A stretch of DNA of 6,928 nucleotides from a virus. Its lineage: Duplodnaviria > Heunggongvirae > Uroviricota > Caudoviricetes. The notes under the pieces are model-generated. The model did no database searches, had not been told where the DNA came from, and was given only the letters and a program-made list of their open reading frames with translations. The DNA lies in IMG/VR virus record IMGVR_UViG_2675903352_000017, positions 1-6,928 of that record. One strand, 5' to 3'. Below, piece by piece: positions 1-6,928 of the stretch. A program made the translations under genes and the position numbers. Within the stretch, counting starts at the first letter, position 1. Each line of letters opens with the position of its first letter.

Positions 1-138
1 AAAGGCCCCATAAGGCGCTCGCGCTAATGACACCCGTGGAATATATTTTAAGAGAGAACAAAAATTGCAATATGTGGTGGACCCATACATCTCCTTGCCT
101 TTCGGCACGTAAGAGGCTAACCTACATGTGTCTAGCAT
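1..138 (-). CDS. Partial hypothetical protein, 5' end only; the frame runs off the window start
   Basis: ATG at 138..136 on the - strand, preceded by GAGG (150..147) with an 8-nt spacer and an in-frame upstream stop. The frame stays open for 46 codons to position 1 (MLDTCRLASYVPKGKEMYGSTTYCNFCSLLKYIPRVSLARAPYGAF...). No family recognised; too short for the ORF track. Confidence 0.2.
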   Translation of the reverse strand, partial: MLDTCRLASYVPKGKEMYGSTTYCNFCSLLKYIPRVSLARAPYGAF

Positions 139-202
139 GAAATTGGCCTCAGATTAATGTTAAGCGTCTTGCAGGACGCGTAATGTTAACTGGGGCTTTT
201 CT

Positions 203-238
203 CTATCTGCCGTTGGTGTTCATGCCCGAGGCAGATAG
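203..238. repeat. 9-bp perfect inverted repeat CTATCTGCC / GGCAGATAG separated by 18 bp
   Basis: Read directly: 203..211 CTATCTGCC and 230..238 GGCAGATAG are exact reverse complements. No U/T run follows on either strand, so it is not an intrinsic terminator; it could be a protein-binding site or an RNA stem. Confidence 0.35.
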
Positions 239-292
239 CCTCAAGCACCCACAGCCATTCTACTTAACTACCGTTACCTCGCCAATATGAAA

Positions 293-397
293 TCAGTCAG
301 AAAGGCGATCCATAAGAACAACAGCAAGGCAATAAATTGCCATTACAGCAGCAATAGCCAGCGCACATTTCAGAACCAGCACAATGACCTCCCACAT
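293..397 (-). CDS. Small hydrophobic peptide, about 29-42 aa with one predicted transmembrane helix; hypothetical
   Basis: - strand frame MWEVIVLVLKCALAIAAVMAIYCLAVVLMDRLSD, stop TGA at 295..293. Three in-frame starts are possible: TTG 421..419 (AGGAGG about 10 nt upstream), ATG 397..395 (no SD), GTG 382..380 (GGGAGG 393..388, 5-nt spacer). It overlaps the listed + strand ORF 287..481 antisense, so which strand codes is unresolved. Confidence 0.25.
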   Translation of the reverse strand: MWEVIVLVLKCALAIAAVMAIYCLAVVLMDRLSD

Positions 398-493
398 TTG
401 ACGTACACGTGCATGATTCAATATGTGGCAACCTCCTCCTTGCTTCAATGCAAAATCAAGTATTGTTGTATAACTATTTAACCAACTCCCTAT

Positions 494-537
494 CCCCGCA
501 TCTCAGGCGCCCAACTTATGTGTGCGGGGCGTTTTTT
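494..537 (+). terminator. Putative rho-independent terminator on the + strand
   Basis: GC-rich stem options CCCCGCA (494..500) / TGCGGGG (523..529), or CGCCC (508..512) / GGGCG (527..531), followed directly by T6 at 532..537. On the - strand the hairpin is followed by AUAGGGAG, not a U tract, so it is directional for + strand transcripts. Confidence 0.4.
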
Positions 538-543
538 AATACC

Positions 544-627
544 TTACCCCCAGCGGCAAATCAAATACACCACCAGCGCCACCGCCAGTGCAATACCTAC
601 TGTTGTGAATGCCTCAGGCCAGCTCAT
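544..627 (-). CDS. 27-aa predicted single-pass membrane peptide; hypothetical, last gene of a three-gene operon
   Basis: ATG at 627..625, translation MSWPEAFTTVGIALAVALVVYLICRWG, stop TAA 546..544. A strong SD AGGAGG sits inside the last two Arg codons of the upstream 115-aa gene, 7 nt before the ATG. Hydrophobic core with a basic C-terminus. Below the ORF-track size cutoff. Confidence 0.45.
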   Translation of the reverse strand: MSWPEAFTTVGIALAVALVVYLICRWG

Positions 628-631
628 TGAT

Positions 632-979
632 TCACCTCCTTCGTGGTTCTGGTAGCGGCATCCAGTCGGTTACATTGCGGCTCTGTGTTTCAAAAAATTC
701 ATTACCATTGCGGACAATATCGAAAAACTCACCGTCTCGATATTGCGCATGAAGAACGAATGCGCCATCACATAAAATAATTACGTGCTGACCATCACCT
801 AGCATTCGCTCACTACAGCTTATCCAACCGCCCGAAGTTACCGGAGAGTTGCCAGTCTTACGCATGGCAATCTCCACGATTTCAACCATATCTCCTGGTG
901 GAATTTTACAGTGCTGACCCAAATGCCTCTGCTGCCTGGCATACTCAAGGATGTGCTCCAGTTTGATTCGATTAATCAT
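632..979 (-). CDS. Hypothetical protein, 115 aa, second gene of the coupled operon
   Basis: Complete ORF from the track. Its ATG (979..977) overlaps the TGA stop of the upstream 135-aa gene as ATGA; GGAG lies 7 nt upstream. No family recognised from the sequence (MINRIKLEHILEYARQQRHLGQ...). Confidence 0.7.
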   Translation of the reverse strand: MINRIKLEHILEYARQQRHLGQHCKIPPGDMVEIVEIAMRKTGNSPVTSGGWISCSERMLGDGQHVIILCDGAFVLHAQYRDGEFFDIVRNGNEFFETQSRNVTDWMPLPEPRRR

Positions 980-1383
980 GATTTATCTCCCTTAAGCATG
1001 GCTGCACGACAGGCCTCTTTGAGCACCCAGTCAACCGCGTCTTTCCATGCTCCGGTTTCGACTGGCGGATTTTCACGCTTAACCTGTTCATAGAAACGCA
1101 CTGCTTTAATCAATCCTTCTGGTGTCAGTGACACAGGTGTAGCGGTGAATAGAGGTTTAGGTGTTATCTCTGCACGTTTTGCGTATGCATCAACTGTGTC
1201 AGGATTAAACAGGATTATGTTTTCGCCGTATTCCCACGCTATCGGCTCTGCTTCCAGCGATGCCAGAGCAATTTTGAATAACTCACCCTCTACTCGTGCC
1301 ACCCCTGAATTGGGGTGGCATTTCGCAATCGCTATTTTTAATTTAGCTTCTTCGATTAATTGCTCTTTTGTTAATTCAGTCAT
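976..1383 (-). CDS. Hypothetical protein, 135 aa, first gene of the coupled operon
   Basis: Complete ORF from the track (MTELTKEQLIEEAKLKIAIAKCHPNSG...). It follows a 158-bp AT-rich intergenic region and is same-strand coupled to the 115-aa gene. No family recognised. Confidence 0.7.
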   Translation of the reverse strand: MTELTKEQLIEEAKLKIAIAKCHPNSGVARVEGELFKIALASLEAEPIAWEYGENIILFNPDTVDAYAKRAEITPKPLFTATPVSLTPEGLIKAVRFYEQVKRENPPVETGAWKDAVDWVLKEACRAAMLKGDKS

Positions 1384-1392
1384 TTTTCATTA

Positions 1393-1408
1393 CCGCCCTT
1401 TCGGGCGG
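1393..1408 (-). other. GC-rich hairpin with a GAAA (GNRA) tetraloop in the 5' leader of the 135-aa gene
   Basis: - strand RNA reads AGGAGG-CCGCCC-GAAA-GGGCGG-UAAUGAAAAAUGACU. A 6-bp GC stem (1393..1398 / 1403..1408) lies between an AGGAGG motif (1420..1415) and the start codon at 1383. A 4-codon mini-ORF (ATG AAA AAT GAC TGA, from 1390) overlaps the real start. No U tract follows, so it is not a classic terminator. Confidence 0.3.
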
Positions 1409-1541
1409 CCTCCTGATGTTTTGAGGGTGCAGGAATCCCTCCTGTTAAGGATTAAATTTTATTTACAGTGCTGAGATTAATTATTCAGATTTGAATTATG
1501 TTTTCTCTTTCACTTCACGCAGTCCTGATTGTTAATTTGGC

Positions 1542-1958
1542 TCACAGTACCACCTCCTGCAAACTTCCCTTCCAGAAAGCCAGCACGCGCTGCATAGTTT
1601 CGCTCTGACGGCACTCTCGGCAAATTATGTTCTGTCTCCTGTTGTAACGGCGTATCTCGCTATCTGGCAATGAATAAACCAGGTCGGGGTCGTTCTTCTT
1701 TTTCACTGCCGCTCTCGACATTTTTTTGCAGGCTTTTATCCAGTCCTTACGAGCCTGTTCTGAAGGAAATATTCCATGGCCTGAACCATATAGCGTGCCA
1801 CTAACTACCAGCTCTTTCGCCAGAACTTCTATCAGGTGTCTCGTTGCTCCGGTTTCATCCTCCAGTTGCTTACGTGTTTTCCTCCCATCTCTGCGCACCA
1901 GTTCCACAATACGCGCCTTCAGTTGCTCCCGATATTCAGGTGTAAAAACGTTTCTCAT
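1542..1958 (-). CDS. Hypothetical protein, 138 aa from the ATG at 1958; the longest ORF begins at 2015 (157 aa)
   Basis: Track ORF 1542..2015. The internal ATG at 1958..1956 is preceded by GGTGAGG with a 5-nt spacer and avoids a 50-nt overlap with the upstream gene, so it is the preferred start. Product MRNVFTPEYREQLKARIVELVRRDGRKTRKQLEDETG...; basic, no family recognised. Confidence 0.6.
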   Translation of the reverse strand: MRNVFTPEYREQLKARIVELVRRDGRKTRKQLEDETGATRHLIEVLAKELVVSGTLYGSGHGIFPSEQARKDWIKACKKMSRAAVKKKNDPDLVYSLPDSEIRRYNRRQNIICRECRQSETMQRVLAFWKGSLQEVVL

Positions 1959-1965
1959 AAGTGCC

Positions 1966-2727
1966 TCACCTTTCCGACACAACGCGACTGGAGGAATCGA
2001 CAATCTGTCGGACAATATCCCGGTGTTTATTCAGCTCCCGCAGCGCGGCGCAGACGCGCTCCCACTTCTGGACATGATTTTTCGCCCGGCGCAGTTCGCG
2101 GTTTGCCAAATGCAGCGATGGTAAAATCAGGTCATCCGCCCGCGTTTCGGTGAACGATGGCAGCGACTGCACAATGTCCGCCACAGTTTCTGTTTTAATT
2201 TCTTCCTGTGTTACAGTTTCCTGTGCTGGTAACGCAACACCTGCTGGCTGAGGAAAGGCTTTACCATCTGTTTCCGTTACCAATGCGGCTTTCGGCTCTG
2301 CTGGTAAATTATCGTCCGGCATGCAGTAACGAAATTTACCGTTCTGATTTACGCGAATCAGGCGACCTTTGCTGATTGCCTGAGCCAACGTTGAAGCCAC
2401 TTTGCGTGATGTGATACCGAACAGCGTAGCCAGCTCATCAGCCGTTTGTGGTCCGCGTTGTTCAATCGTCGCCGTTAAATCGCACTCTGAGATTTTCGCT
2501 ACTGTTGCCGTGGTAGTTTCTTCATGAAATTCAGCCCGGGATGCTTGTTCCTGCTGAGCATTGCTACCAGCCACACGCCAGGTGTACGCGGTTTTATCAA
2601 CGAAACCAGATTTTTTCAGTTCCCACAGCTCATTCAGTACCTCTTCACGACTGATATCAAGTCGCGCAGCAAGTTCTATGGATGTGGCCTTTCCCATCGC
2701 TTTCAGTGCGTCAAAAACAGTCTCCAT
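1966..2727 (-). CDS. Hypothetical DNA-binding protein, 253 aa from the ATG at 2727; the longest ORF begins at 2778 (270 aa)
   Basis: Track ORF 1966..2778. The internal ATG 2727..2725 is preceded by GGAGG (2740..2736) with an 8-nt spacer and removes the 29-nt overlap with the DnaC-like gene. The N-terminus ([43 protein letters not shown]) and a second segment ([32 protein letters not shown]) look like winged-helix/HTH motifs; that reading is inference. Confidence 0.65.
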
Positions 2728-2749
2728 TAAAATTTCCTCCCGGTAAAAA

Positions 2750-3496
2750 TCACTTCGTGATTCCTGGCTGGACGACATTCGGGCGCCAGCTTTCCCAGTT
2801 AAAAGTCACCCAGCGCCCGCCGTTCATGGTCATGCGATCCATAATCCTCTCGCCGAGCAACGTTTTCATGGCCTCATAGTTCAGGTTTGTCAGCATCCCC
2901 ATACTGCGCATCGATGCTGTCCGGCGATCAACAATCTGATGCAGCACCACCTGCTCGTTTTTCGTCTCACGCTGAATGCCAATTTCATCAAGAACCAGCA
3001 GATCCACTTCGCACAGTTCCCGCAAAAATTTTTCGCCTGACTGCCCGTCGTCATAGCTGGCGTGCAGGGCACTCATAACATCAGCCACAGTAACCACTAT
3101 CACTGTCTGGCCGTCTTTCAGCAGGCGATTCCCGATAGCCGCCGCCAGATGGTTTTTTCCGGTACCAGGTTTTCCGCTGAACGCGAAATTTGTGCATCCG
3201 GTCATCAGTTCATCAGCGATGGATTTCGCCTGACTTAACGCGTATCGCTGGCCGTCGTTCTGTACATGGTAATTCGCAAACGAGCATTTACGGTGCAACG
3301 GCTGGATGCCTGAGCGATTCAGAATTTTTTCCACCCGCAACTGGCGATTCAGGCGGTTGATCTCCTCGCTACGCTTCTGGCCTTCAGCAAGTTGCCACTC
3401 GCGCCACTCCGCTACCGTTCTGAATGGGGCGGTTACATGTGGCGGGGTCAGTCTGCGGATACGTTCCAGAACGCCGCCTGTCGCAATATTTTTCAT
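2750..3496 (-). CDS. ydaV: DnaC-family replicative helicase loader (AAA+ ATPase)
   Basis: 248 aa. Walker [18 protein letters not shown], Walker [10 protein letters not shown], and C-terminal [21 protein letters not shown]...[10 protein letters not shown] align along the full length with E. coli DnaC as I recall it. It follows the initiator gene after a 6-nt gap. The symbol is given from family plus synteny with Rac (ydaU-ydaV). Confidence 0.92.
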
Positions 3497-3502
3497 GGTT
3501 CG

Positions 3503-4465
3503 TTACCCCCTGAACCCCGGAGGAATTTCGGTGTCCGGTTCAGAAATATGATTCACACAACGCTGTACAGGTGAACGCCCCAGGCGGATGACCAGTTCGT
3601 CCCATTTTTCGCGGAGCTTTGACGGGCTCATGATGTTTTTTACCCAGAATGGATCCCGCTGTACCCGCCCAAACATTTCGCAAATTTGTCTGTGAGTTCT
3701 GCCATCCAGCATCCGCATTGTGCGCACGTCATTGGCCCACGCGGTCCAGTTTGGTTCTTTCGGTCGCGTGATCTCGCCATCATCGCTGGCCGCCTGCTCG
3801 TAAAGACTCACGATTCGTCCCCAGATCCACTGTGCGCACGCCAAATCTTCCTGACTTCCCCACTGGCGTTTTTTCGCACTGAACACAACCGCATCAGGGT
3901 GTCGGGTTAAAAAATCCTGTTCAGCCGTCTGCGGGTCCGGTTGCGAAGCGTCCGGACAAGAAGATCTTTTATCTGATGGATCAGATTTTAATACTGACGG
4001 ATCGGGGTCAATCATCGCCCCCCTAACCGACCGTTTTTTATCAACGGTTGATCCATCAAAATTTGACGGGTCAACCGTTGAGGGGTCAATATTTGACGGG
4101 TCAACCGTTAACGGGTCATTTTTTGCCGGGCTAATTTTTCTTTTCGGTTTATATGCCTCTCGCGCCGCCGCTGCTGCAGCTTCGAGTTTTTCCACATTAA
4201 GCCGGTAGATATTGCTTACGTTACGTCCGCCAACCTTACGCTCTTCCTTTGTCAGCCAGCCGCTTTTTTCCAGTTCCGCTATCGCCGCTTTAACCGTTGA
4301 TTCACTCTTTGCCCCAATCTGACGACGAATGGTCTCTACTGCAGGCCATGACACACCTTCATCATTGCTGTAGTCTGCAAGACGAGCCATCACTGCCACC
4401 CTGGATAAGATCATGCCGGTGAAGGCACACCCTTCCCAGACAAGACCATGAAGCTTGCTGCTCAT
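3503..4465 (-). CDS. Phage replication initiator (O-like origin-binding protein; YdaU-like by position)
   Basis: 320 aa. N-terminal winged-helix pattern typical of phage/plasmid replication initiators (ILSRVAVMARLADYSNDEGVSWPAVETIRRQIGAKSESTVKAAIAELEKSGWL). Central repetitive linker PLTVDPSNIDPSTVDPSNFDGSTVD is encoded by the iteron DNA. Sits immediately upstream of the DnaC-like loader. Confidence 0.8.
   Translation of the reverse strand: MSSKLHGLVWEGCAFTGMILSRVAVMARLADYSNDEGVSWPAVETIRRQIGAKSESTVKAAIAELEKSGWLTKEERKVGGRNVSNIYRLNVEKLEAAAAAAREAYKPKRKISPAKNDPLTVDPSNIDPSTVDPSNFDGSTVDKKRSVRGAMIDPDPSVLKSDPSDKRSSCPDASQPDPQTAEQDFLTRHPDAVVFSAKKRQWGSQEDLACAQWIWGRIVSLYEQAASDDGEITRPKEPNWTAWANDVRTMRMLDGRTHRQICEMFGRVQRDPFWVKNIMSPSKLREKWDELVIRLGRSPVQRCVNHISEPDTEIPPGFRG
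3995..4155. repeat. Putative origin of replication: iteron cluster and adjacent AT-rich tract inside the initiator gene
   Basis: Perfect 19-bp direct repeat ATTTGACGGGTCAACCGTT at 4061..4079 and 4091..4109. Related partial copies: TGACGGATCGGGGTCA 3995..4010, TCAACGGTTGA 4041..4051 (inverted relative to 4071..4081), GGGGTCAAT 4082..4090, ACGGGTCA 4111..4118. An AT-rich stretch follows at 4118..4155, and several GATC sites sit at 3979..4052. Same logic as lambda ori lying inside gene O. Confidence 0.6.
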
Positions 4466-4488
4466 AAAAAACCCCGAACACCGTGCTT

Positions 4489-4914
4489 TTAGTGCATCAC
4501 CACGGCATTTCCTGCCGGGCCACCGCGATTAATCTGGTTGAAACCAGCAATTGCCACCGCAATAAAATCATCTGCATCCCTCACCAGCCGCTCCCGCGTC
4601 TCCAGCAGCTCCCGAAAATAGGCTGAACTGTGACTGCGCATTCGGGCCACCAGCAGAGGCGGCATTGCCTTTTCGATCGCAGGTAACAACGCCTGAATTT
4701 TTTTAACCGCATCAGGGGTGTCTTTCTCCACCCAGCGGAAAATTTTCTGAGTATTGCGAGCCAGGGCTTCAGGATGGCTGTCGTCATATAATTCCGGGAA
4801 CGTCATACCCAGCTCAAAATAAGCTCGGGTTATTTCAGCCGCCGGAACTTTTTCGCCATCAGGACGCGCCCAGGCATTCATCGCCATGCGGATGTGTTCA
4901 TGCTTGATTTTCAT
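4489..4914 (-). CDS. ydaT: YdaT-like protein (proposed CII-like regulator / toxic product of the Rac early-right operon)
   Basis: 141 aa, immediately downstream of the Cro-like gene and upstream of the initiator, matching the size and position of Rac ydaT (about 140 aa). Assigned by synteny and size; I cannot verify the sequence match from memory. Confidence 0.6.
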   Translation of the reverse strand: MKIKHEHIRMAMNAWARPDGEKVPAAEITRAYFELGMTFPELYDDSHPEALARNTQKIFRWVEKDTPDAVKKIQALLPAIEKAMPPLLVARMRSHSSAYFRELLETRERLVRDADDFIAVAIAGFNQINRGGPAGNAVVMH

Positions 4915-4936
4915 GAATCATTTGCCTCTTGATGTT

Positions 4937-5233
4937 TCAGGTATGATCAAATGAGGATTTGTTACTGTCATTTAGTTGCTTCACTGACATATTCTGCGAA
5001 TAACATGCCGAACGTCGTAAATATGACCAGTCAATATCAGGACGAAGTTCTTCGCACAGAACGTCACCTCTTGTTGCACGTTCAATTGCTGGACATCTCT
5101 CTGCAGGCAATTGACGTACCCCTTTGATCCATTGATTTACGCTTGGAGGTGATACACCTAAAAGCCTAGCCATTGCTGATTGCCCACCGACAACAGCACA
5201 AGCTCGCTTGAATGAATAGTTCTCTTTTTTCAT
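4937..5233 (-). CDS. ydaS: Cro/YdaS-family HTH DNA-binding protein, first gene of the early-right operon
   Basis: 98 aa; MKKENYSFKRACAVVGGQSAMARLLGVSPPSVNQWIKGVRQLP... matches my recollection of E. coli K-12 Rac YdaS nearly residue for residue. HTH motif present. GGAG sits 8 nt before the ATG. Divergent from the repressor gene across the operator region. Confidence 0.8.
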   Translation of the reverse strand: MKKENYSFKRACAVVGGQSAMARLLGVSPPSVNQWIKGVRQLPAERCPAIERATRGDVLCEELRPDIDWSYLRRSACYSQNMSVKQLNDSNKSSFDHT

Positions 5234-5259
5234 CGAATGAACTCCAAAAACACACAGAG

Positions 5260-5289
5260 ATATTAGGCGACGCCTAATGCTAATGTCAA
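5260..5289 (-). promoter_or_regulatory. pR-like sigma70 promoter for the ydaS-ydaT-replication operon
   Basis: - strand -35 TTGACA (5289..5284), 18-bp spacer, -10 TAATAT (5265..5260). The -10 and spacer overlap operator O1. The predicted transcript start is about 20 nt upstream of the ydaS SD. Confidence 0.5.
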
Positions 5290-5329
5290 TAGGCTATGCC
5301 TAATGCAGTAAGAATAGGGATTGCCTAAT
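5262..5329. promoter_or_regulatory. OR-like tripartite operator: three 17-bp palindromic sites, consensus ATTAGGC-N3-GCCTAAT
   Basis: O1 5262..5278 ATTAGGCgacGCCTAAT (perfect inverted repeat); O2 5288..5304 AATAGGCtatGCCTAAT; O3 5313..5329 AATAGGGattGCCTAAT. Centres are 26 and 25 bp apart. The sites lie between the divergent repressor and Cro-like genes. Confidence 0.6.
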
Positions 5330-5334
5330 ACAAT
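5329..5334 (+). promoter_or_regulatory. Possible -10 element of a pRM-like repressor promoter (weak or absent -35)
   Basis: TACAAT at 5329..5334 on the + strand, about 7 nt before the racR SD AGGAG (5341..5345), with no good -35 hexamer 17 bp upstream. Resembles an activator-dependent pRM-type promoter next to O3. Speculative. Confidence 0.25.
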
Positions 5335-5356
5335 GAGCATAGGAGAATATTAAGCA

Positions 5357-5833
5357 ATGCTTAGTGGTAAAGACTTAGGCCGAGCAATAGAGCAGGCCAT
5401 TAACAAAAAAATCGCATCGGGATCCGTCAAATCAAAGGCGGAGGTCGCTCGCCACTTCAAAGTCCAACCACCATCAATCTATGACTGGATTAAGAAAGGC
5501 TCCATAAGTAAAGATAAACTTCCAGAATTATGGCGTTTCTTTTCTGATGTTGTTGGTCCAGAGCATTGGGGGCTTAACGAATACCCCATACCAACCCCCA
5601 CCAACTCAGATACAAAAAGTGAACTTTTAGACATAAACAACCTTTATCAGGCAGCCTCTGATGAAATAAGAGCGATTGTAGCTTTCCTGTTATCAGGAAA
5701 TGCTACAGAACCAGACTGGGTTGACCACGATGTTCGCGCCTACATAGCAGCGATGGAAATGAAAGTTGGTAAGTATCTGAAAGTTCTAGAATCTGAACGG
5801 AAAAGCCAGAACATCACAAAAACTGGAACTTAA
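5357..5833 (+). CDS. racR: Prophage repressor, RacR-type (cI functional analogue, HTH)
   Basis: 158 aa; MLSGKDLGRAIEQAINKKIASGSVKSKAEVARHFKVQPPSIYDWIKKG... matches my recollection of E. coli K-12 RacR in sequence and length. HTH near the N-terminus. Flanked on both sides by arrays of the same operator palindrome. Confidence 0.85.
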   Translation: MLSGKDLGRAIEQAINKKIASGSVKSKAEVARHFKVQPPSIYDWIKKGSISKDKLPELWRFFSDVVGPEHWGLNEYPIPTPTNSDTKSELLDINNLYQAASDEIRAIVAFLLSGNATEPDWVDHDVRAYIAAMEMKVGKYLKVLESERKSQNITKTGT

Positions 5834-5846
5834 ACTTATATGGTCT

Positions 5847-5876
5847 GACGGAAAACTCCTGGATTCCGTTATTTAA
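5847..5876 (+). terminator. Weak candidate terminator or stem-loop downstream of racR
   Basis: GACGGAA (5847..5853) pairs with TTCCGT (5864..5869) around a 10-nt loop, followed by TATTTAAT. Stem is short and the U tract imperfect. Confidence 0.2.
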
Positions 5877-5928
5877 TCCCTCCCATCACTTTTTTCATTC
5901 GCATCACCTATTGGGTTACGCCCAGAAC

Positions 5929-5972
5929 ATTAGGCAAAGCCTATTGACAATCAATTAGGCATTACCTATAGT
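5929..5972 (+). promoter_or_regulatory. pL-like sigma70 promoter with two overlapping operator sites (OL-like)
   Basis: -35 TTGACA 5944..5949, exact 17-bp spacer, -10 TATAGT 5967..5972. Operators O4 5929..5945 (ATTAGGCaaaGCCTATT) and O5 5954..5970 (ATTAGGCattACCTATA) are 25 bp centre-to-centre and overlap the -35 and -10. Confidence 0.6.
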
Positions 5973-6071
5973 TCCAGCATGCCACCCACCCCGCCCCACA
6001 GCACGCAGGGCAATACTTCGAGTTACCAGGCAGTGGTCAGGGGTTAAGTAGCCAGCCCGAGGCGTAAGAAC

Positions 6072-6302
6072 ATGACGGCAGGGTTCAACTTTAACTATGC
6101 AGCAGGTTTTTGTTCCGCTACCCCGGCGTTAAGGGGAAATGAGGTCAGCATGGATACTATCGATCTTGGCAACAACGAATCTCTGGTGTACGGCGTGTTT
6201 CCCAACCAGGACGGCACGTTCACCGCGATGACGTATACCAAAAGTAAAACGTTTAAAACCGAAGCTGGCGCGCATCGCTGGTTAGCAAGAAACTCTGACT
6301 GA
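6072..6302 (+). CDS. Small hypothetical protein, first ORF of the early-left operon (76 aa, or 50 aa from the internal ATG at 6150)
   Basis: Track ORF. ATG 6072 has GAGG 9-10 nt upstream; the internal ATG at 6150 has GAGG 6141..6144 with a 5-nt spacer (MDTIDLGNNESLVYGVFPNQDGTFTAMTYTKSKTFKTEAGAHRWLARNSD). Rac carries small ORFs (ydaG/ydaF) in this position, but I cannot confirm the sequence identity. Confidence 0.5.
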   Translation: MTAGFNFNYAAGFCSATPALRGNEVSMDTIDLGNNESLVYGVFPNQDGTFTAMTYTKSKTFKTEAGAHRWLARNSD

Positions 6303-6313
6303 TGAGGTTGACG

Positions 6314-6928
6314 ATGGAATTTAAAGATTTACCTACTTCAATCCAGGAGATTGCAGCACACACACTTCGTCATCGTCTGAACGAACTTGCATTGGAATCG
6401 GTAACGAAAAAAGACACTGATAATATGGCTCGTAATGTGCGCGATGCGTTTACCGGATTGTATTTCTGTGCGTCTGTAAATAAACACGACTCAGAGAGTG
6501 TGGCAAATAAAATTGCAGAAACGACAGCGCAAAACATCAATACGAAACCAACGGAAGAAGAAATTGATCAGTTTGCTCATGATGCTGGTTTAAAAAACAA
6601 GAAAGAAAAATCGCCATATGCGGGGAACATGTTTGTTTATGACAATCTCATCAGAATTCGTGGCGAAATTCCGGCGGAATACCTGGCAAGAGTCCATCAG
6701 GCATTGCTTAAAAATCTGGAAACAGAATTATTTGATGGCAACACTAACGGTTTCTTCATGGTATCAGGCCTTGAGAAAGACTGGGATGCAGAAAAACGCT
6801 GGAATGTTGCTACATGGTTATTCAGTAACAGAGCCGCTGCTCTGGAAGCTTCGGCATGTATTTGCGGCCTGTTCTTAACAGACCACAAATATAATCTGGA
6901 TGTGTACAGTTATATTTACGCTGGTTAA
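6314..6928 (+). CDS. Hypothetical protein, 204 aa from the ATG at 6314 (208 aa from the ATG at 6302, which overlaps the upstream stop as TGATG)
   Basis: Complete ORF ending with TAA at the window edge. GAGG 6304..6307 lies 6 nt before the ATG at 6314. Product MEFKDLPTSIQEIAAHTLRHRLNELALESV... is hydrophilic, with no transmembrane segment and no motif I recognise. It sits in the early-left operon driven by the pL-like promoter. Confidence 0.7.
   Translation: MEFKDLPTSIQEIAAHTLRHRLNELALESVTKKDTDNMARNVRDAFTGLYFCASVNKHDSESVANKIAETTAQNINTKPTEEEIDQFAHDAGLKNKKEKSPYAGNMFVYDNLIRIRGEIPAEYLARVHQALLKNLETELFDGNTNGFFMVSGLEKDWDAEKRWNVATWLFSNRAAALEASACICGLFLTDHKYNLDVYSYIYAG

Follow-up and report, generated by a model that had tools for sequence, protein, structure and literature searches.

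The DNA analysed here, called the window below, is the whole stretch of 6,928 nucleotides (nt) at positions 1 to 6,928 of the IMG/VR virus record IMGVR_UViG_2675903352_000017 (Caudoviricetes). The subject of this study is a run of three open reading frames (ORFs) on its minus strand, which code for products of 135, 115 and 27 amino acids (aa), and above all the smallest of them, a frame of 27 codons that recurs in phages and in Escherichia coli genomes. The original prediction for this stretch, made from the letters alone, recognized none of the three products. The two larger ones can be placed: the 115-aa product is a DUF551 protein, and the 135-aa product, judging from its profile match, is of the Eaa/Ead type (phrog_660). 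The features on which the argument depends are the following.

976-1383, minus strand: the 135-aa gene (from the ORF list)
632-979, minus strand: the 115-aa gene (from the ORF list)
544-627, minus strand: the 27-aa micropeptide gene, MSWPEAFTTVGIALAVALVVYLICRWG (from the ORF list), predicted to encode a single-pass membrane peptide and to be an autonomous cassette
976-979, minus strand: ATGA overlap, in which the TGA of the 135-aa gene (976-978) lies over the ATG of the 115-aa gene (977-979)
635-640, minus strand: AGGAGG ribosome-binding site of the 27-aa ORF, in the last two codons of the 115-aa gene

Across the junction of the 135-aa and 115-aa genes the minus strand reads ...AAATCATGATTAAT..., and the 115-aa gene ends in CGA AGG AGG TGA. 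Its AGGAGG is followed by 7 nt (TGAATCA) and then by ATG at 625-627; the TGA, a 4-nt spacer and the ATG of the 27-aa ORF all lie within 625-634. Translational coupling by termination and reinitiation is recognized by stop and start codons that abut or overlap, with the ribosome-binding site inside the upstream gene, and this is the arrangement found here. The original prediction had described three minus-strand ORFs, the ATGA overlap and the AGGAGG 7 nt before the third ATG, and every one of these details is confirmed from the sequence; its remark that the 27-aa peptide is hydrophobic holds as well (Kyte-Doolittle mean of 2.45 over residues 6-24). The layout goes beyond chance, since the N-termini of both larger proteins are common to many homologues and the 27-aa ORF recurs intact. 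Thus the three ORFs are real genes arranged for coupled translation.

The 27-codon frame as a gene

Could a frame as short as 27 codons be a gene under selection? Its recurrence was followed with a degenerate DNA pattern over W3-F7 and C24-G27 only, with a free gap of 36-60 nt between the two, together with exact look-ups. The pattern matched more than 119 viral contigs, and the 126 instances considered below comprise 119 viral contigs, six other loci and the window. The gap between W3-F7 and C24-G27 is 48 nt in nearly all 126 instances, and the ORF is intact in about 120 of them, with 40 protein variants. The start and the stop lie outside the search pattern. The start is ATG in 122 of the 126 instances and GTG in two, and a stop stands straight after codon 27 in 124 (TAA 108, TGA 15, TAG 1). 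For codons 8-23, which are also outside the pattern, the ratio of nonsynonymous to synonymous polymorphism (pN/pS) is 0.44, compared with 0.97 and 1.79 in two shifted frames. Synonymous changes account for 29 of 65 distinct variants against an expected fraction of 0.29-0.30 (p between 0.006 and 0.009). The replacements are conservative (I/V, A/S/T, L/F, Y/F), and G11, A13, A15, A17, Y21 and I23 are nearly fixed. The two other frames of the sense strand are interrupted by stops in 57 and 59 of 60 variants.

It is hardly credible that the ORF is a chance frame or that the real coding sequence is antisense to it. In 59 of 60 variants one antisense frame does run without a stop, with a low pN/pS (0.32), but this value is expected because the frame has its wobble position in common with the sense frame. 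Antisense starts, stops and lengths are scattered, whereas on the sense strand the ATG, the stop and the ribosome-binding site stay in place and the other two frames contain stops. An antisense gene was rejected, as no antisense frame has a fixed start or stop.

Several points weigh against the conservation argument and should be noticed. A pN/pS of 0.44 is only moderate, and that of the wobble-sharing antisense frame is similar, so the assignment of the frame rests on the conserved start, stop and ribosome-binding site. The motifs WPEAF and CRWG are part of the main pattern, and the independent routes, namely blastn matches and a survey anchored on DUF551 genes whose test for presence also needed WP[ED]AF, bear out their invariance only in part. 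A form in which F7 is replaced by L (WPEAL) was read by eye, in one upstream sequence common to eight of the hok-anchored loci (of the L246-L325 set). Finally, the peptide sequence was found neither in the small-ORF study supplements searched nor in the searchable literature. With all this taken into account, we consider it highly probable that the 27-codon ORF is a real conserved coding gene. The blastn matches have a further implication. In E. coli genomes the matching blocks often run from the last base of the stop codon to the A of the ATG, and blocks bounded by the ORF ends indicate that the peptide ORF is itself a mosaic module.

Spread and partners of the peptide gene

How widely is this module spread, and which genes does it follow? 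The 84-nt ORF matches 1561 of 5426 complete E. coli genomes (about 29%) at 2429 places, 156 of them on plasmids, and a genome often has several copies. One such copy is in prophage Sp11 of E. coli O157:H7 Sakai (NC_002695.2, about 2194416-2194496). When one genome per species was searched (185,579 species), the pattern at 48-nt spacing was found in E. coli, in Shigella flexneri and in two short contigs. The two contigs belong to Segatella and Alloprevotella metagenome bins and are taken to be mis-binned. About 30 other pattern matches are chance background, as their spacing is random. Among phages, the peptide gene lies in the exo-xis region of Shiga-toxin (Stx) 2a phages, just before xis and int; reviews of this region do not mention the peptide. 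It is also found, ATGA-coupled, in the virulent Vequintavirinae phage Av-05 (L129, KM190144.1, about 74412-74493), where the upstream protein ends in ..WNACRAAMLKKKGMNQ and has no DUF551 domain, and again ATGA-coupled on a 94-kb plasmid with ead/Ea22-like genes (L326, NZ_CP010173.1, about 65809-65892). In the CPS-53 prophage of E. coli K-12 (yfdS region), no peptide-like feature is annotated and no peptide match was obtained at E up to 0.01.

The preceding stop overlaps the peptide ATG as ATGA in 115 of 120 loci, and a GGAGG-type site 7-12 nt upstream of the ATG is kept in each class of upstream context. The window has the 4-nt spacer instead. At 632-645 on the minus strand, one nucleotide is deleted relative to most DUF551 genes (..GAACCGCCGCAGGAGG.. 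becomes ..GAACCACGAAGGAGG..), a change common to the E. albertii relatives. As a result, the DUF551 end PEPPQEVNQ becomes PEPRRR, and the ATGA overlap with the peptide gene becomes the spacer. Of the upstream partners, 65 are DUF551 proteins, 46 are ..NGLISAEDILR proteins, seven are zinc-ribbon/coiled-coil proteins and two are of another type. The commonest peptide variant occurs in identical form after the first three kinds (19, 20 and 6 loci, respectively). In the DUF551-anchored survey, the peptide directly follows 43 of 79 DUF551 genes and is absent after the other 36. With unrelated partners on one side and DUF551 genes lacking the peptide on the other, the peptide is tied neither to DUF551 nor to the trio. 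What comes downstream also varies: of 122 loci, 69 have the hok/sok promoter there and 32 the second small hydrophobic ORF, and a terminator or a convergent ParDE pair is seen as well.

Existing annotation has largely passed over this gene. RefSeq leaves the 27-aa ORF unannotated at all chromosomal loci that were inspected. In a small number of GenBank submissions it appears as a hypothetical protein, and one RefSeq entry is an upstream-extended version of 45 aa. A fusion of the peptide to DUF551, suggested by its clustering with 121-aa DUF551 proteins, was rejected; the cluster is an artefact that arises from partial proteins, cut off at the ends of contigs and wrongly given the DUF551 label. 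Entries P0013, P0017-P0019 and P0314 are peptide-frame fragments that bear the label 'DUF551 domain-containing protein, partial'. The 27-aa peptide is in no curated family and no paper on it was found, while the larger genes are already known as families.

The two larger genes and the prophage setting

In a PHROG profile search the 135-aa protein matched phrog_660 with E = 5.7e-48, and also phrog_60 on residues 1-61 and phrog_3323 on residues 1-103. No Pfam family was matched at E up to 1, PF13935 (Ead/Ea22-like) included; PF13935 is present only in longer, fused relatives. The 1704 homologues come from prophages of E. coli, E. albertii, Salmonella and Citrobacter, the best being at 97% in E. 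albertii, and their names include 'Eaa protein' (one at 64% identity) and 'Prophage protein'. The N-terminus is a helical hairpin that closes with a ..ALASLEAEP.. motif, and this N-terminal module is the same as in the Ead/Ea22/Eaa proteins (lambda Ea22, P22 Ead/EaA), with which the protein has its set of recombining modules in common. In contrast to them, the 135-aa gene sits after the replication genes and not between exo and xis, and its product has neither the long coiled coil of lambda Ea22 nor that protein's C-terminal domain. Judged by its sequence, the 135-aa gene product is a stand-alone Eaa/Ead-type mosaic prophage protein. These accessory genes are expressed early. Ea22 of lambda and of Stx phages is reported to favour lysogeny (PMC7093339, PMC10834534). 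The larger products would belong to a family of accessory proteins of which the one member studied biases the choice between lysis and lysogeny.

The DUF551 domain (PF04448) of the 115-aa protein spans residues 51-112 and covers model positions 1-66 of 68, with 55.7 bits against a cutoff of 22 and E = 9.1e-15. The protein keeps the signature W-I-S-C-S-E-R-M ... W-M-P-L-P-E-P, and W52, S54, C55, S56, E57, W106, M107, P108, L109, P110, E111 and P112 fall in invariant or nearly invariant columns of the DUF551 alignment. There are 1034 homologues, the best at 97% in E. albertii and likewise ending in ..PEPRRR. The N-terminus is a short module, phrog_24004, and a match to phrog_924 was also obtained. 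DUF551 is a portable domain, seen in variant V2 of Stx-phage Ea22, in YfdS and in MazZ-like pyrophosphohydrolases (PMC10834534, PMC4776307). For YfdS only peroxide sensitivity is reported, and overexpression of the yfdQRST cluster inhibits replication (PMC4776307). As in YfdS of CPS-53 and Ea22 V2, the domain in the 115-aa protein is a portable C-terminal module that is found on many N-terminal partners; the protein differs from those two in its short phrog_24004 module and its ..PEPRRR end. The AlphaFold2 models reached a predicted local distance difference test (pLDDT) score of 68.6 for the 135-aa protein and 53.2 for the 115-aa protein. The better of the two, that of the 135-aa protein, gave nothing below E = 1 in Foldseek against PDB, and PDB sequence searches gave only noise.

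Do the three genes form a unit? Mosaicism was read from the genes preceding the peptide in 120 related loci. The module set consists of the ..ALASLEAEP.. N-terminal hairpin, several middle pieces, a ..WNACRAAML.. junction and a C-terminal DUF551 or ..LPDKAMDYLKRNGLISAEDILR module, and these are joined in dozens of combinations into proteins of 52 to 308 residues. For example, one locus (L001) has about the first 130 residues of the 135-aa protein joined to the ..EDILR module in a polypeptide of 187 aa, and in two others (L037, L094) its N-terminal module is fused to DUF551. Since the same modules are fused in other phages, the 135-aa and 115-aa genes can be read as the split form of one polypeptide. 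They would be two pieces of a hyper-mosaic accessory family, made in tandem by way of the ATGA overlap. The trio, taken as full-length relatives of both larger proteins plus the peptide, occurs in only 3 of 128 peptide-bearing loci, one of which is a near-identical sister contig, and no complete E. coli genome covers at least 80% of window positions 400-1600. PADLOC gave no match for the 135-aa or 27-aa product and only noise for the 115-aa product (E = 0.044), and neither Pfam nor NCBIfam assigned any of the three to a toxin-antitoxin or defence family. The original prediction had suggested that the trio is one functional unit, an idea that its rarity does not bear out. It had also named homology to ordinary lambdoid accessory genes as a result that would speak against its reading, and such homology is found for both larger proteins. 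Its other reservation, that the 27-aa ORF might be absent from homologous loci, fails decisively, as the ORF is conserved. There is therefore little doubt in our view that the larger genes are ordinary Ead/Eaa/DUF551 accessory genes rather than parts of a dedicated three-gene system.

Other features of the window are the following.

5357-5833, plus strand: repressor-like gene (Pfam/PHROG)
1392-1414, minus strand: leader of the 135-aa gene, with AGGAGG at 1409-1414 and a GC hairpin of 7 base pairs with a GAAA loop at 1392-1409 (G1409 is in both)
293-397, minus strand: second small hydrophobic ORF, outside the trio (34 aa when counted from the conserved Met; gene calls in E. albertii give 42 aa, 293-421)
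84-250, minus strand: hok/sok leader (Rfam RF01794, sok; 110 bits, E = 3.8e-25), which closes the accessory block

An exact look-up put the window on contig BBVQ01000060.1 of assembly GCA_001514805.1. By Pfam and PHROG assignments, it is the immunity-replication-accessory segment of a Rac/lambdoid-type prophage, and its early rightward genes are those of the minus strand. Their order is a Cro/YdaS-like gene, a YdaT-like gene, an O-like initiator, a DnaC-like loader, DUF1627, a DUF977/Ren-like gene and then the three ORFs, which are followed by a short spacer, another small ORF and the hok/sok leader. E. albertii is the source of the closest homologues for all products. The three ORFs would form the last part of the early rightward operon of this prophage, whose host is probably E. 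albertii. A consensus scan, which is weak evidence, found no sigma-70-like site on the minus strand at 544-1541. The genes have one orientation, and no promoter-like site separates the three ORFs from the replication genes. The three would be delayed-early lytic genes, co-transcribed from the early rightward promoter in the manner of the lambda nin region. The longest-ORF forms of DUF1627 (270 aa) and DUF977 (157 aa) overlap by 50 nt at 1966-2015 on the minus strand; the gene calls of the source contig use later starts for both (253 and 138 aa), and the overlap is then gone.

In the leader of the 135-aa gene, 8 unpaired nt (1384-1391) lie between the hairpin and the ATG at 1381-1383, and the AGGAGG is 25 nt before the ATG. 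According to the fold prediction, the hairpin would leave the AGGAGG only about 8 nt away from the start codon, as in a split ribosome-binding site. Leaders of this type are also found ahead of MTELTKEQ.. genes in more than 20 loci, and their variants show no clear compensatory changes.

Beyond the peptide gene, the second small ORF (MWEVIVLVLKCALAIAAVMAIYCLAVVLMDRLSD) is homologous to a widespread 34-aa sequence, MSDDISLAMEGALAVIAVVGVYCLVVFLMDRLGN, which is named 'hypothetical' or 'putative membrane protein'. Where it follows the peptide, it usually does so 35 nt downstream and with its own AAGGAGG site. Its start in the window is ambiguous and may be TTG 421, ATG 397 or a GTG preceded by GGGAGG. 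Non-homologous hydrophobic ORFs occupy the same slot elsewhere: MMPPVKVVIITLVMIVIARIMSGEIGWIW is ATGA-coupled after DUF551 in L175 and L234 and is listed on 293 contigs as 'Uncharacterised protein', and MFGHINALFLGVFMAVMCIEYWR stands upstream of hok in several loci of the L246-L325 set. Ahead of the hok/sok leader there is a promoter-like TTGGCG-17-TAGAAT at 257-285 on the minus strand. The window stops short of the coding sequence of hok, and at that place a 51-aa HokD-like gene is present in the sister contig L245. Between the two small ORFs, at 494-537, a terminator-like hairpin faces the early operon. It reads in the plus-strand direction alone, as CCCCGCA...UGCGGGG with a U run behind it, and its fold is no better than that of shuffled sequence. 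It could block antisense transcription coming from the hok/sok side.

Possible role of the peptide

What might the peptide do? It has the characters by which single-pass microproteins are recognized: a length of 27 aa (at most 50), one span long enough for a membrane and a conserved coding sequence. The mean Kyte-Doolittle hydropathy of residues 6-24 ranges from 2.1 to 2.75 across variants. Aromatic residues stand at W3, Y21 and W26, the head is WP(E/D)AF, the tail is CRWG, and small residues line one face (G11, A13, A15, A17). No residue other than E5 and R25 is charged, and this suggests a topology with the N-terminus out and the C-terminus in. The peptide would therefore be a single-pass inner-membrane microprotein made during early lytic growth, its membrane insertion and topology being predicted from composition. 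Its gene appears to be a self-contained cassette, placed on the 3' end of the last accessory gene, that brings a ribosome-binding site but has no promoter-like site. It would be expressed by termination and reinitiation, across the ATGA in most loci and here across the 4-nt spacer left by the deletion. The fixed head, tail and small-residue face suggest that the helix may pack against a host or phage membrane protein during early lytic development. In one hydrophobic span, flanking aromatic residues, small-xxx-small spacing and conservation despite small size, the peptide resembles the microproteins KdpF, AcrZ, MgtS and CydX. It differs from them in lacking sequence homology, in being encoded by phages and prophages and in being reinitiated behind an unrelated gene; weak, sub-threshold matches to KdpF and to a glycine-zipper family are compositional. 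As a mechanism, an effector that works by helix packing is for us a tentative proposal. As the same peptide stands behind unrelated genes and in temperate as well as virulent phages, it probably acts on a target of its own and not as a subunit of the upstream protein. The overall reading, in which split accessory genes of the early operon are followed by an autonomous micropeptide cassette that acts by helix packing, seems to us reasonably probable. The poor models of the two larger proteins, which allow no fold-based inference for them, count on the other side.

A more specific form of this proposal, which we regard as rather unlikely, is that the peptide is a phage membrane effector with a specific target and that the small hydrophobic ORFs found in the same slot, between the accessory genes and hok/sok (the 34-aa family, MFGHINALFLGVFMAVMCIEYWR and MMPPVKVVIITLVMIVIARIMSGEIGWIW), are possibly further members of this hidden class. 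It might modulate Hok-type toxins, a host transporter or division protein, or superinfection.

Might the peptide instead serve the protein encoded before it? As a dedicated membrane anchor or partner subunit of the preceding DUF551 or Ead-type protein, it would have its amount matched to that protein by the coupling. The ATGA junction in most loci, its place directly after more than half of the sampled DUF551 genes and the non-homologous hydrophobic ORFs in the same post-DUF551 slot of L175 and L234 would all fit such a role. However, the identical peptide follows three unrelated C-terminal modules, the Av-05 partner has no DUF551, and 36 of the 79 DUF551 genes do without the peptide. Only about five and four residues lie outside the membrane span, which leaves little surface for a soluble partner, and the fusion proteins in databases are annotation artefacts. 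We think an anchor or subunit unlikely.

The suggestion of the original prediction was a toxin-antitoxin, superinfection-exclusion or abortive-infection module, formed by the trio or by the peptide and its upstream partner, with the peptide as membrane effector. In size and composition the peptide does resemble type I toxins and small exclusion proteins, and it often has other addiction modules as neighbours, with hok/sok behind it in 69 of 122 loci and ParD/ParE nearby in L004 and L127. In the DUF551-anchored survey, hok lies within 900 nt in 30 of 40 loci with the peptide and in none of 34 without it. A functional link between the peptide and hok/sok was considered and rejected; each occurs without the other, and the association, obligate in neither direction, is probably positional. 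Like Hok-type type I toxins, the peptide is small, hydrophobic and carried by prophages, and it adjoins hok/sok in 57% of loci. Unlike them, it has no homology to Hok and no promoter-like site, antisense RNA or leader fold of its own, is coupled to early lytic genes and occurs also without hok. Rfam found no structured leader or antisense RNA over 544-627, the sok/hok leader at 84-250 being the only such element. Depending as it does on the translation of an early lytic gene, the peptide would be expected to stay unexpressed while a lysogen is repressed. None of the three products matches a PADLOC or toxin-antitoxin family, the trio is rarely together, no promoter-like site lies upstream, a virulent phage also carries the peptide, and identical copies follow unrelated partners. 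Such a module is therefore improbable.

Another possibility is that only the act of translation matters and not its product, with ribosomes held on the 3' end of the early transcript or read-through into hok/sok shaped by them. The ORF is always the last frame of its block and reinitiation-coupled, and often only 25 nt separate its end from the hok promoter box, which would fit this explanation. Against it, the amino-acid sequence, length and hydrophobicity are kept, with conservative replacements and an enrichment of synonymous changes, and the ORF is also present where no hok follows, before terminators, ParDE or xis and int. We consider it quite improbable.

What does the micropeptide cassette mean for the phages that carry it? 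The two larger genes add nothing new, being typical shuffled Ead/Eaa/DUF551 accessory genes. The 27-codon gene is present in about 29% of complete E. coli genomes, Shiga-toxin phages included, yet it has been missed by standard annotation. Its start overlaps the stop codon of genes whose influence on the lysis-lysogeny decision is under study. Given the ATGA coupling, phenotypes ascribed to Ead, Ea22 or DUF551 proteins could in some phages, if the proposal is true, be partly those of the peptide, and Ea22/DUF551 constructs or deletions may add or remove it unnoticed. The peptide cassette is also a clean natural example of host-to-host gene mobility in which a gene brings only its own ribosome-binding site and relies on reinitiation.

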